Below are positions 21,413 through 64,000 of a stretch of 64,000 nt of DNA, piece after piece. The stretch is from Eledone cirrhosa (lineage: Eukaryota). The stretch covers positions 1,798,001 to 1,862,000 of the forward strand of contig OZ024765.1 in NCBI GenBank assembly GCA_964016885.1, given 5' to 3'. The notes beneath the pieces were generated by a model. That model searched no databases, was not told the origin of the DNA, and saw nothing but the letters and a program-made list of their open reading frames with translations. Position numbers and translations under genes: made by a program. How positions within the stretch are numbered: the first letter of the stretch is position 1; every line of letters starts with the position of its first letter.

Positions 21413-22589
21413 CGAAGGTAGGCTTAAAAGTTCATAGGCTCACTATGAAGGAGTGATGCTAGGGCTGTGAAATCTTGCATGTTGAATAATAAACCTTATT
21501 TGGTCATTCCATGAGAGTATCCTGGTCAGCCTATGAAGGAGTGATGCTAGGGCTGTGAAATCTTGCATGTTGAAAAATAAACCTCATTTGGTCATTCCAT
21601 TAGAGTATCTTGGTCAGCCTATGAAGGAGTGATGCTAGGGCTGTGAAATCTTGCATGTTGAAAAATAAACCTCATTTGGTCATTCCATGAGAGTATCCTG
21701 GTCAGCCTATGAAGGAGTGATGCTAGGGCTGTGAAATCTTGCATGTTGAAAAATAAACCTCATTTGGTCATTCCATGAGAGTATCTTGGTCAGCCTATGA
21801 AGGAGTGATGCTAGGGCTGTGAAATCTTGCATGTTGAAAAATAAACCTCATTTGGTCATTCCATGAGAGTATCCTGGTCAGCCTATGAAGGAGTGATGCT
21901 AGGGCTGTGAAATCTTGCATGTTGAAAAATAAACCTCATTTGGTCATTCCATGAGAGTATCTTGGTCAGCCTATGAAGGAGTGACGCTAGAGCTGTGAAA
22001 TCTTGCATGTTGAAAAATAAACCTCATTTGGTCATTCCATGAGAGTATCTTGGTCAGACTATGAATGAGTGATGCTAGAGCTGTGAAATCTTGCATGTTG
22101 AAAAATAAACCTCATTTGGTCATTCCATGAGAGTATCTTGGTCAGCCTATGAAGGAGTGACGCTAGAGCTGTGAAATCTTGCATGTTGAAAAATAAACCT
22201 CATTTGGTCATTCCATGAGAGTATCTTGGTCAGCCTATGAAGAAGTGATGCTAGGGCTGTGAAATCTTGCATGTTGAAAAATAAACCTCATTTGGTCATT
22301 CCATGAGAGTATCTTGGTCAGCCTATGAAGGAGTGACGCTAGAGCTGTGAAATCTTGCATGTTGAAAAATAAACCTCATTTGGTCATTCCATGAGAGTAT
22401 CTTGGTCACCCTATGAAAGAGTGATGCTAGGGCTGTGAAATCTTGCATGTTGAAAAATAAACCTCAGTTGGTAATTCCATGAGAGTATCTTGGTCAGACT
22501 ATGAATGAGTGATGCTAGAGCTGTGAAATCTTGCATGTTGAAAAATAAACCTCATTTGGTCATTCCATGAGAGTATCCTGGTCAGCCTA
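21413..22589 (-). repeat. 88-bp satellite array, inverted (~13 copies)
   Basis: Same structure as 16791-18143. Confidence 0.95.
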
Positions 22590-23364
22590 AACACACACAT
22601 ATATATGCATATGTATGTACATATATATATATGTATATATATGTATCTATGTATGTATGTATATATATATATATATATATTTATATGTATCTATGTATGT
22701 ATGTATATATATATATATATATATATATTTATATGTATATATATATTTATATATATATATATATATATGTGTATATATATATATATATACATACACATAT
22801 ATATATATATGTAAATGTATATATATACGTATATATATATATATATATATATATGTGTGTGTGTGTGTGTGTGAGTGTAATATATGGGTCCCAATATGTA
22901 AACTAAACGACTAACACTGATTTCAGAAAAATCAGTGTTAGTCGATTAGAAAAATTATCAACTTCTGTGACCCTTTCTACCTGGGACCTTAAAGTATCCC
23001 TACAAAATCTCAATTAATTATCTGTATAATTGTGAAGGTTATCAAGAAAGCAACTTAAGAAAGTGAAAGGTAAAATTTTACAAAATAGTAAGTTGAATGA
23101 GTTGTTTCCCTTAGATGAAAGACGCAGAGTCTACTAAATGCTAGAAATGGCAGCCACAGAAATACTATAAATAATGATAGATTTAGTGGTCAAACAACCC
23201 TCAAATATGGCCATATTCAACAGTTTAACCTAGAATATCTCATTAGACTGATGAAAACCCTCTTCAGTGGTTAAAAATACTAGAAATGGCGACTAAATAT
23301 CCCTCAAATCACAGAGAAGTGACGCTGGAAGTATTAAAAAAAATTCAATGATATATATAATATA

Positions 23365-23579
23365 CGAGGGTAGGCTGACCAAGATACACTCATGGAATGA
23401 CCAAACGAGGTTTATTTTTCAACATGAAAGATTTCACAGCTCTAGCATCACTCCTTCATAGGCTGACCAAGATACTCTCATGGAATGACCAAATGAGGTT
23501 TATTTTTCAACATGCAAGATTTCACAGCCCTAGCATCACTCCTTCATAGTGAGCCTATGAACTTTTAAGCCTACCTTCG
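23365..23579 (+). mobile_element. Mariner-type MITE with only 2 internal units (215 bp)
   Basis: TA|CGAGGGTAGGCTG ... GCCTACCTTCG|TA. Confidence 0.8.
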
Positions 23580-23992
23580 TATATGTAAACAATGTATTTA
23601 TTTAATATACAAATAATTACTATTGCTACAGTTAAAAAATGTACAAAAAAATACTTTAAATTCAGTTTTTAATTCATGCAATAGTGTCAATAGTTAAAGA
23701 AATTCGAAATCGTTTTTGCACCCATTTTTGCGATTAAGTAAAGACGGAGTTATCGTTCTTGAGATTTCGGCTCGGAGAAATTTGAGGAACTGATGTCGCT
23801 AAATCGCCAAATCATTTACCTGCCCCGTTGCACCATGGGAGTGTAATGGCTGCCTTTTATTTTTTAAACGATGGCATATTTTTATACTTGGGGAGGGTCA
23901 TATTGTTGTATTAATATTGCCAGAAATAATAACAGAACACACTCACTGTTTGATTGGTTTTCGCTTTTGTATCTTTTATATCTCCAGATACA

Positions 23993-24473
23993 GTATATAT
24001 ATGTATATATATTATATTATATACTATATATATATATATATATATATATATATATATATACCATATATACCATGTTTATACTATATATAGGTATGTATAT
24101 ATACTATGTATATATTCTATATATATACTATATATATGTATATACTATATATATATATATATATATGTATATACTATATATATATATATACACACACTAT
24201 ATATATATATATATATATGTACTATATATATTTATATATATAGTACATATATATACTATATATATACACAATATATATATACTACGTAAATATATAGATG
24301 CGGATATATACTATATATAGTATGTACATATATATATATACACACACACTATATGTATATATATAGTATAGCATATATATATAGTATATATAGTATATAT
24401 ATATATATATACATACACGCACGCACATACAGACATATATATATATATATATATATATATATATATATATATA
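23993..24473. repeat. Degenerate (TA)n tract (mirrored at 60517-61090)
   Basis: Shared interruptions such as ccatatataccatgttta / taaacatggtatatatgg. Confidence 0.9.
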
Positions 24474-61764: not shown

Positions 61765-62595
61765 CGAAGGTAGGCTTAAAAGTTCATAGGCTCACTATGA
61801 AGGAGTGATGCTAGGGCTGTGAAATCTTGCATGTTGAAAAATAAACCTCATTTGGTCATTCCATGAGAGTATCTTGGTCAGCCTATGAAGGAGTGATGCT
61901 AGAGCTGTAAAATCTTGCATGTTGAAAAATAAACCTCATTTGGTCATTCCATGAGAGTATCTTGGTCAGCCTATGAAGGAGTGATGCTAGAGCTGTGAAA
62001 TCTTGCATGTTGAAAAATAAACCTCATTTGGTCATTCCATGAGAGTATCTTGGTCAGCCTATGAAGGAGTTATGCTAGAGCTGTAAAATCTTGCATGTTG
62101 AAAAATAAACCTCATTTGGTCATTCCATGAGAGTATCTTGGTCAGCCTATGAAGGAGTGATGCTAGGGCTGTGAAATCTTGCATGTTGAAAAATAAACCT
62201 CATTTGGTCATTCCATGAGAGTATCTTGATCAGCCTATGAATGAGTGATGCTAGAGCTGTGAAATCTTGCATGTTGAAAAATAAACCTCATTTGGTCACT
62301 CCATGAGACTATCTTGGTCAGCCTATGAATGAGTGATGCTAGAACTGTGAAATCTTGCATGTTGAAAAATAAACCTCATTTGGTCATTCCATGAGAGTAT
62401 CTTGGTCAGCCTATGAAGGAGTGATGCTAGAGCTGTGAAATCTTGCATGTTTAAAAATAAACATCATTTGGTCCTTTCATGAGAGGATCTTGGTCAGCCT
62501 ATGAAGGAGTGATGCTAGAGCTGTGAAATCTTGCATGTTGAAAAATAAACCTCATTTGGTCATTCCATGAGTGTATCTTGGTCAGCCTACCCTCG
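61765..62595 (-). mobile_element. Mariner-type MITE with ~9 internal 88-bp units
   Basis: TA|CGAAGGTAGGCTT ... CAGCCTACCCTCG|TA. Confidence 0.8.
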
Positions 62596-62774
62596 TATAT
62601 TATATATATCATTGAATTTGTTTTAAATACTTGCAGTGTCACTTCTCTGTGATTTGAGGGATATTTAGTCGCCATTTCTAGTATTTTTAACCGCTGAACA
62701 GGGTTTTCATCAGTTTAGTGAGATATTCTAGGTTAAACTGTTGAAGATGACCATATTTGAGGGTTGTTCGACCA

Positions 62775-62853
62775 ACGGGGTCGATAAAATAAAGTACCAG
62801 TAATGCACTGGGTAATTGCTGGCCTTGTGCCTAAAGTAGAAACAATTATTATT
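62775..62853 (+). mobile_element. SINE 3' fragment inserted in the inverted spacer module
   Basis: acggggtcgataaaataaagtacc...gaaacaattatt replaces ctaaatctatc present (as reverse complement) in the 18.7 kb and 23.2 kb copies. Confidence 0.85.
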
Positions 62854-63534
62854 AATATTTCAGTGGCTGCCATTTCTAGCATTCAGTAGACTCTTCGTTT
62901 TAGTGTCTTTCATGTAAGGGAAACAACTCATTCAACTTACTATTTTGTAAAATTTTATCTTTCACTTTCCTAAGTTGCTTTCTTGATAACTTTCACAATT
63001 ATACAGATCATTAATTGAGATTTTGTAGGGATACTTTAAGGTCCCAGGTAGAAAGGGTCGCAGAAGTTGATAATTTTTCTAATCGACTAACACTGATTTT
63101 TCTGAAATCAGTGTTAGTCGTTTAGTTTACATATTGAGACCCACAATACACACAAACACACACACACACATATATATATATACATTTACATATATGTATA
63201 TATATATATATAAATAAATATATATATATATATATATATATATATATATATATATATATATATATATATAAATACATATATCTATATATATATATACATA
63301 GTTATATATACGTATATATACATATATATATATATATATATATACATACATATATATATAAATATATATATATATATATACTTACATATATACATATAAA
63401 TATATATATATATATATACATACATAGATACATATATATACATATATATATATATACATACATATACATATATATATATACATATACATATATATATATA
63501 TATATGTGTGTGTGTGTGTGTGTGTGTGTGTGTG

Positions 63535-64000
63535 TAGGCTGACCAGGATACTCTCATGGAATGACCAAATGAGGTTTATTTTTCAACATGCAAGATTTCA
63601 CAGCTCTAGCATCACTCCTTCATAGGCTGACCAAGATACTCTCATGGAATGACCAAATGAGGTTTATTTTTCAACATGCAAGATTTCACAGCTCTAGCAT
63701 CACTCCTTCATAGGCTGATCAAGATACTCTCATGGAATGACCAAACGAGGTTTATTTTTCAACATGCAAGATTTCACAGCTCTAGCATCACTCCTTCATA
63801 GGCTGATCAAGATACTCTCATGGAATGACCAAACGAGGTTTATTTTTCAACATGCAAGATTTCACAGCTCTAGCATCACTCCTTCATAGGCTGACCAAGA
63901 TACTCTCATGGAATGACCAAATGAGGTTTATTTTTCAACATGCAAGATTTCACAGCTCTAGCATCACTCCTTCATAGGCTGATCAAGATACTCTCATGGA
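63535..64000 (+). repeat. 88-bp satellite array running off the window
   Basis: Begins taggctgaccagg after a TA/TG tract, mirroring 22589. Confidence 0.95.

Follow-up and report, generated by a model that had tools for sequence, protein, structure and literature searches.

How does a mosaic of non-coding repeats come to stand in mirror order on both sides of a large satellite array? This question is raised by a window of 64,000 nucleotides from Eledone cirrhosa (GenBank assembly GCA_964016885.1, contig OZ024765.1, positions 1,798,001 to 1,862,000, forward strand); the positions below are those of the window. The region holds a repeat mosaic duplicated, imperfectly and in inverted order, on the two sides of a satellite that runs in one direction. 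The mirror is confined to the flanks, and the core itself is not palindromic. The best reading is an amplified segmental duplication made by fold-back at inverted repeats, which we consider moderately probable. Junk DNA was likely copied back on itself at repeats that form hairpins, with amplification afterwards; insertion of one giant transposon is less likely.

Outward from the core, the same modules were found in the same order on both sides, i.e., 71-bp satellite, TA tract, segment Q, a hairpin miniature inverted-repeat transposable element (MITE) H, segment F, a MITE with an 88-bp array, spacer U, a (CA)(TA)(TG) tract, and a further 88-bp array. The inverted-order match joins 21443-27192 to 56081-64000. 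An earlier note on this DNA, made from the letters alone, had described ordered inverted modules, and they lie where it placed them. In BLAST of arm against arm, the E-values were 4e-55 for Q, 3e-50 for F, and 3e-128 for U, far past the chance level. Mismatches between the arms were 2 of 120 columns in Q, 3 of 118 in F, and 2 of 174 in the hairpin arm (7/412 combined), and 7/239 and 9/175 in U. The total was 23 substitutions in 826 aligned non-satellite bases. The first 207 columns of the 71-bp arrays showed 12 mismatches. Three insertions are private to the right arm (59476-59640, 60557-60675, and 62775-62851). About 262 bp of the hairpin MITE are missing from the left arm. The arms also have in common the interruptions within their TA tracts (23993-24473 and 60517-61090) and the junction of 88-bp array and microsatellite, of which the 22589/22590 side is mirrored at 63535. 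The differences in copy number, substitutions, and private insertions reported in the earlier note were confirmed, and its view of an old, imperfect inverted duplication is supported. With these differences and the private indels, the mirror is real and old enough to have diverged.

In the left arm, the (CA)(TA)(TG) tract and spacer U occupy 22590-23364 on the plus strand (U copy L2, 22874-23364, low-copy but multi-copy in reads). The first 75 bp of U are a higher-copy hairpin repeat. Next come a mariner-like MITE with two 88-bp units (array A5, 23365-23579, plus), the long form of F with one arm of H (23580-23875, plus; the deletion lies here), Q (23876-23992, plus), and the interrupted (TA)n tract. 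In the right arm, the (TA)n tract carries the private 119-bp insertion, which has no further match within the window. Q, a two-armed H (61214-61640), and long F follow at 61091-61764 on the minus strand, the Q-side terminus of H being lost. This asymmetric arrangement, with F on one side of H and Q on the other, is likely the ancestral state. Beyond it lie the mariner-like MITE with nine 88-bp units (A6, 61765-62595, minus), U copy R with its (CA)(TA)(TG) tract (62596-63534, minus), and array A7 (63535-64000, plus), which runs off the window. Two of the private insertions, one in the 71-bp array (59476-59640) and one in U copy R (62775-62851), resemble short interspersed elements (SINEs). They share 98.7% identity over 77 bp and match the copy 12892-13056, adjoining the left boundary, at 92-97%; they would have arisen either by retroposition within one subfamily or as templated insertions.

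The structure reaches further left than the extent of 21413 to 64000 given earlier, which left out one palindrome and half of another (14434-22589). The left limit is 14434, and the two nested palindromes are centred at about 16517 and 21138. The limit is a mid-monomer cut adjoining a SINE-like fragment, with no TIR-like end (TIR, terminal inverted repeat); later truncation is possible. The right end lies beyond the window. Each palindrome is composed of 88-bp array, F', H, inverted F', and inverted array, followed by microsatellite and U, where F' is F shorter by 64 bp. The first includes array A1 (14434-16233, plus, 20 monomers), the centre at 16244-16790 (F', H1 at 16300-16734 with TTAA on both sides of it, and inverted F'), and array A2 (16821-18143, minus), which ends abruptly at the (CA)n(TA)n(TG)n tract. 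This tract and U copy L1, which begins with a 74-bp duplication, occupy 18144-18889 (plus). The second palindrome includes a mariner-like MITE with 22 88-bp units (A3, 18890-20864, plus, TA at both ends), the centre at 20865-21412 (F', hairpin H2, and inverted F'), and array A4 (21443-22589, minus), whose microsatellite junction is the one mirrored at 63535. Arrays A1 to A5 run plus, minus, plus, minus, plus; each inverted copy is enclosed by direct ones, there is a second palindromic junction, and the inverted dimer is present twice in tandem. With 4 differences in 509 positions between the U copies L1 and L2, the doubling in tandem likely came after the big mirror.

The small palindromes, as far as sequence can tell, would show fold-back most directly. 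At 16517 and 21138, the loop of H was kept, and F-type flank and 88-bp array were found on both sides. The replacement of one flank by an inverted copy of the other at H points to fold-back copying. In H1, one arm carries F-side and the other Q-side diagnostic bases at three sites, and both flanks are F'; this is the expected product of copying one flank across the hairpin. H1 is predicted to fold at -224.5 kcal/mol (z -42), with about 178 bp in the stem. The return junction is the self-complementary (CA)n(TA)n(TG)n tract, where the inverted U is missing, and this junction is common to both big arms. H1 ends in TTAA followed by AG on both sides, but the two sides are copies of the same end, and the stricter AGGRR motif is absent. 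In PMC6004289, the Kolobok/T2-MITE type is defined by a TTAA target and an RR terminus.

The arms are a mosaic of the mariner-like MITE with its 88-bp array, the TTAA-bounded hairpin MITE, SINE-like pieces, and microsatellites. The mariner-like MITE has TA flanks, terminal inverted repeats recognized by end alignment, and a high-copy dispersed family. We take it to be mariner-like from the terminal motif, as we do for the SINE-like label; a transposase was not among the open reading frames (ORFs) seen. In each contig run (described below), 505-527 loose ends extended from the 88-bp module into an intact TA-flanked terminus, so the array is explained by expansion within a common MITE, in a copy that carries a deletion, and the two-unit copy A5 is a deleted derivative of this abundant dispersed family. 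Across each small palindrome, the arrays do not mirror their variants, i.e., A1 and A3 share 9C, and A2 and A4 share 13G and 5T (80 monomers scored). MITEs with internal arrays are already known, and the module belongs among them. DTC84 (PMC3879986) and Xmix/Xstir (PMC6004289) are comparable in having a tandem array between MITE ends, here with copies of 2, 9, and 22 units, but the ends here are mariner-like with TA flanks and not of the AA-flanked pearl type or T2. This kinship covers one module and not the whole structure.

A read search with 22874-23995 as query listed nine runs, and depth was taken from four of them; runs X1-X3, which contained 4-9% of the query words, carry no weight as evidence. 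Three (X4-X6) are contig sets of one sample, which may or may not be the source of the assembly, and the fourth (X7) is a restriction-site-associated DNA (RAD) run of another sample, in which U and F mostly had 0-1 reads, a coverage too thin to bear on them. The summed contig depth of Q was about 0.4-1.2 million, versus about 40-650 in most of the neighbouring spacer. The segment 23876-23992, described earlier as a 115-bp unique segment, is therefore a fragment of a very abundant dispersed repeat. The 88-bp module summed to about 0.9 million and hairpin H to 1,600-9,100, and most of U and F lay at about 40-850. Some bins of U and F were at 0-32, with little or no depth in X5 and X6. The arm modules are independent repeat families at very unlike copy levels, and such different depths are expected of independent repeats.

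Because summed contig depth gives no copy number, single contigs were compared, among 24 listed pieces (42,603 further pieces lie beyond these). Thirteen diverged paralogs of the high-copy modules had depths of 5-19 (median 11.3). For U, the depth was 33 in the L1-type contig, 122-164 in another subtype, and 67-78 at the U-to-MITE junction. The long F contig had 124-162 and the right-arm-type F variant 76-104. The joint that likely marks F' had a depth of 367 in one run and 0 in that row for the other three, among the joints listed. The low-copy spacers thus stand at about 6-30 times the baseline depth, so the cassette appears amplified beyond the window. As a rough figure from one sample, this suggests about 6-30 cassette copies, versus three U, two F, and four F' in the window. 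On the fold-back account, a copy number of ten to a few tens is likely.

A palindromic satellite domain was one of the proposals of the earlier note. It fails for the core, and only the 88-bp and 71-bp arrays form dyads. The core satellite (27193-52266, plus) has nested periods of 9, 21, 30, 41, 71, and 112 bp arranged head to tail. In total, 25,765 bp run one way, with a 3,121-bp inverted block at 52267-55387 (minus). The core beside the right 71-bp array is oriented as the core beside the left one. Because the last 693 bp, the degenerate right edge (55388-56080, plus), keep the main orientation, the two inner junctions are not mirror images. By eye, each core/71-bp junction has a few bases of microhomology, and the polarity is non-mirror.

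The inverted block is more homogeneous than the main core, its tiles being mostly 94-99% identical to one another and about 89-93% to the main core. It has 3-bp microhomology at both ends, and its flanks rejoin in register. Chains of rare 22-mers of at least 70 bp between the block and the rest of the core were not found. The rejoined word across the flanks occurs 37 times in the main core, whereas the three junction words predicted before an in-place inversion occur 0 times. In-place inversion is therefore disfavoured, and the block is likely an inserted piece, judging by these words. A near-perfect 2.9-kb tandem duplication was also found in the core at about 44460-50340 (0 substitutions and four one-base indels in 2,782 columns). 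It may be very recent or a false duplication of the assembly; the latter would change the core length only.

The 71-bp satellite forms a left array of about 38 monomers (24474-27192, plus) and a right array (56081-60516, minus), interrupted by the SINE-like insertion 59476-59640. Both begin at mirrored TA junctions, and they share the outer junction and one variant pool (mean best identity 0.93). They are not collinear by monomer (38 left versus 62 right tiles, Spearman 0.11, p=0.51). The monomer resembles the arms of a small hairpin element at 7417-7618 (E 2e-6 and 8e-6). Between the arms of this element, 61 of 67 columns match, and the arms resemble about 50 bp of the monomer. From this likeness, the element is a possible source of the satellite. 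Two other relations were tried and rejected. Kinship of the 71-bp satellite with the core was not found in one 431-bp pair (local scores 25 and 19 versus shuffled maxima of 31 and 32), and the arrays do not fit as TIRs of the 7417-7618 family around the core, as the left array reads like the right arm of the element.

The proposed origin is repeated fold-back by template switching, followed by amplification; it has five steps, and their order is conjectural. A mariner-like MITE would have lost its middle and amplified the 88-bp unit internally. The inverted dimer would have come from a fold-back that turned at the hairpin MITE and returned at (TA)n, and tandem duplication would have doubled it. 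A larger inverted duplication may then have placed a cassette copy beyond the core. One route is a fold-back with the core as loop, pivoting on 71-bp arrays that already stood inverted at its two sides; the other is a fold-back within a 71-bp array, the core entering the centre later. The large mirror would fit either route. Finally, the arrays would have turned over independently, and the inverted core block would have been inserted. Inverted repeats of yeast are reported to fold back in single-stranded DNA when they lie 30 kb apart and diverge by up to 25% (PMC10164571; PMC6103520), and inverted triplications with junctions at inverted repeats are followed by secondary deletions (PMC10766186). 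Such triplications, including the type of origin-dependent inverted-repeat amplification (ODIRA), are similar to the locus in the inverted copy between direct copies, the junction on a pre-existing inverted repeat with the spacer kept, and the secondary deletions at the palindromic junction. However, strict yeast ODIRA uses inverted repeats of 5-6 bp spaced by 40-80 bp (PMC10766186), whereas a MITE with arms of about 178 bp is found here. The amplified DNA here is also non-coding, with several nested rounds.

Several points weigh against this fold-back origin. The mechanism is read from end products only. H2 carries Q-side bases on both arms, not one of each type, so an extra conversion or recombination would be needed. 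The leftmost array A1 shares variants with the right arm and not with its neighbours; its monomers 2-3 carry, in order, the variants found in monomers 2-3 of A6, which hints at exchange among paralogs. The arm divergence is uneven (about 1.7% in F-H-Q versus about 3.9% in U). Together with the A1 variants, it may fit a single clean event no better than exchange among several paralogs. The multi-copy spacers would equally fit a dispersed mobile unit, and the larger inverted duplication is indistinguishable from re-integration of an existing copy.

The last point leads to an explanation which keeps the small palindromes as fold-backs but has an existing cassette copy brought in, inverted, at the far end of the core by ectopic recombination or re-integration of a circle. 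Several U and F subtypes occur in the reads, some of them absent from the window (one with eight other letters over 111 bp at depth 122), the inner junctions are non-homologous, the 71-bp monomers are not collinear, the 3.1-kb block looks inserted, and satellite circles are reported in Tribolium (PMC12581902). Yet the arms differ in F, H, and Q by only 7/412, closer than that U subtype is to the left copy in the window, and a second insertion boundary is not visible within the window; we consider this origin unlikely. A giant Foldback-like element with modular TIRs was the other proposal of the earlier note, here considered as a non-autonomous transposon with long modular TIRs around a satellite middle. 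Foldback elements such as Tetris and Rehavkus (PMC4079207, PMC12581902) share the long modular inverted arms, variable numbers of tandem repeats, and non-coding, non-palindromic middle, and this part of the proposal stands. The earlier note held that a single genomic occurrence would speak against a mobile element; the spacers look multi-copy in the reads, so the mobile-element reading stays alive. Against it, Foldback elements have defined ends and 8-10-bp target duplications, and the TIRs of Tetris reach 1,735 bp (PMC4079207), whereas the arms here, at least 5.7 and 7.9 kb in length, are several times longer, consist of unrelated, independent repeat families, and hold nested palindromes inside one of them. 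The left boundary is a mid-monomer cut without a TIR-like end, no terminus or target-site duplication was found (the right end being outside the window), and no transposase-like ORF was seen in the window. A narrower form would take only the 71-bp arrays (24474-60516) as the TIRs. Their mirrored TA junctions and the resemblance to the hairpin-element arms are in favour, but the outer flanks are also mirrored, which an insertion would not produce. The structure looks like a foldback and is not filed as one, and both forms are regarded as quite unlikely.

A (peri)centromeric function would be another explanation, in which satellites intermingle in macro-dyad symmetry with conserved inversion sites, as in Tribolium. 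By analogy, the Tribolium macro-dyad is the nearest architecture (PMC13081366, PMC12581902); there as here, satellite subarrays are inverted, inversion sites recur, and different satellites share transition zones. Here, the inversion site F'-H-F' with inverted 88-bp subarrays recurs in two copies in the window, and the F'-like joint had its depth of 367 in one run. This is not so in the core, where the largest array is essentially one-directional. Inversion sites in Tribolium number thousands over multi-megabase domains, versus tens here by a rough read estimate, the inversion site here is a foreign MITE, and bases 1-14400 are ordinary interspersed-repeat DNA. According to PMC13081366, the function of macro-dyads is untested even in Tribolium, and a centromeric role here would have a low probability. 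A structural variant of the idea is somewhat less doubtful, i.e., a hierarchical fold-back domain, Tribolium-like but outside beetles, in which the hairpin MITE would be a conserved and re-used inversion site, and the cassette, repeated tens of times, would cap larger satellite blocks at both ends, possibly as pericentromeric DNA or spreading from locus to locus as a unit. The mirror may also be an assembly artefact made by fold-back reads or a mis-join through the satellite. No spanning read was seen, no listed contig spans the query 22874-23995, none of the 24 listed pieces bridges the left hairpin-Q junction, and the 2.8-kb core stretch with its four one-base indels may be a false duplication. 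However, the substitutions, deletions, and insertions between the arms are beyond what chimeric reads create, and alleles of the right-arm type occur in the short-read contigs along with the U piece of L1 type. The inverted block has flanks that rejoin in register, and a mis-join inside the core would alter its length and not the opposite polarity of the two ends. An artefact is therefore very unlikely.

Macro-dyads of satellites are documented only in Tribolium, according to PMC13081366, and in two other insect papers (PMC13277930, PMC13427858), the term is mentioned in the reference lists only. In a title search for comparable cephalopod satellite work, which covered few subscription papers and no supplements, nothing relevant was found. 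If the pattern recurs genome-wide, the macro-dyad architecture would be extended to another lineage, and conserved inversion sites would gain a testable origin. Taken alone, the locus is a tidy but ordinary repeat-driven rearrangement. Under fold-back duplication, one window would keep the states before and after a germ-line fold-back at a MITE hairpin, and the locus would show how a MITE can become a satellite and then a palindromic array.

The DNA of the window is AT-rich and non-coding, with many microsatellites and short tandem arrays. Among 29 stop-to-stop frames of at least 100 aa, all in repeats or repeat-like DNA, none was transposase-like, as judged without a protein-library search. 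An Rfam scan of the window gave 0 matches. In exact-pattern scans, the U and core patterns were absent from metagenome contigs, and the 71-bp pattern was absent from prokaryote genomes. The region is likely without coding or enzymatic function.

Outside the structure, the SINE-like repeats at 3421-3621 and 12892-14139 presumably resemble octopus SINEs; a literature text search with two of their motifs returned no paper. Tandem arrays at 2891-3434 (45-bp units) and 13780-14026 (units of about 70-77 bp) come from the start and the end of one SINE-like repeat. The GC-richer stretch at 11380-12230 resembles a decayed 5' region of a long interspersed element (LINE). More young tandem arrays, with 88-96% matches, were found at 1026-1717 (101 bp), 8959-9811 (70 bp), 10331-10722 (95 bp), and 12260-12665 (30 bp), so tandem expansion is frequent in this region.

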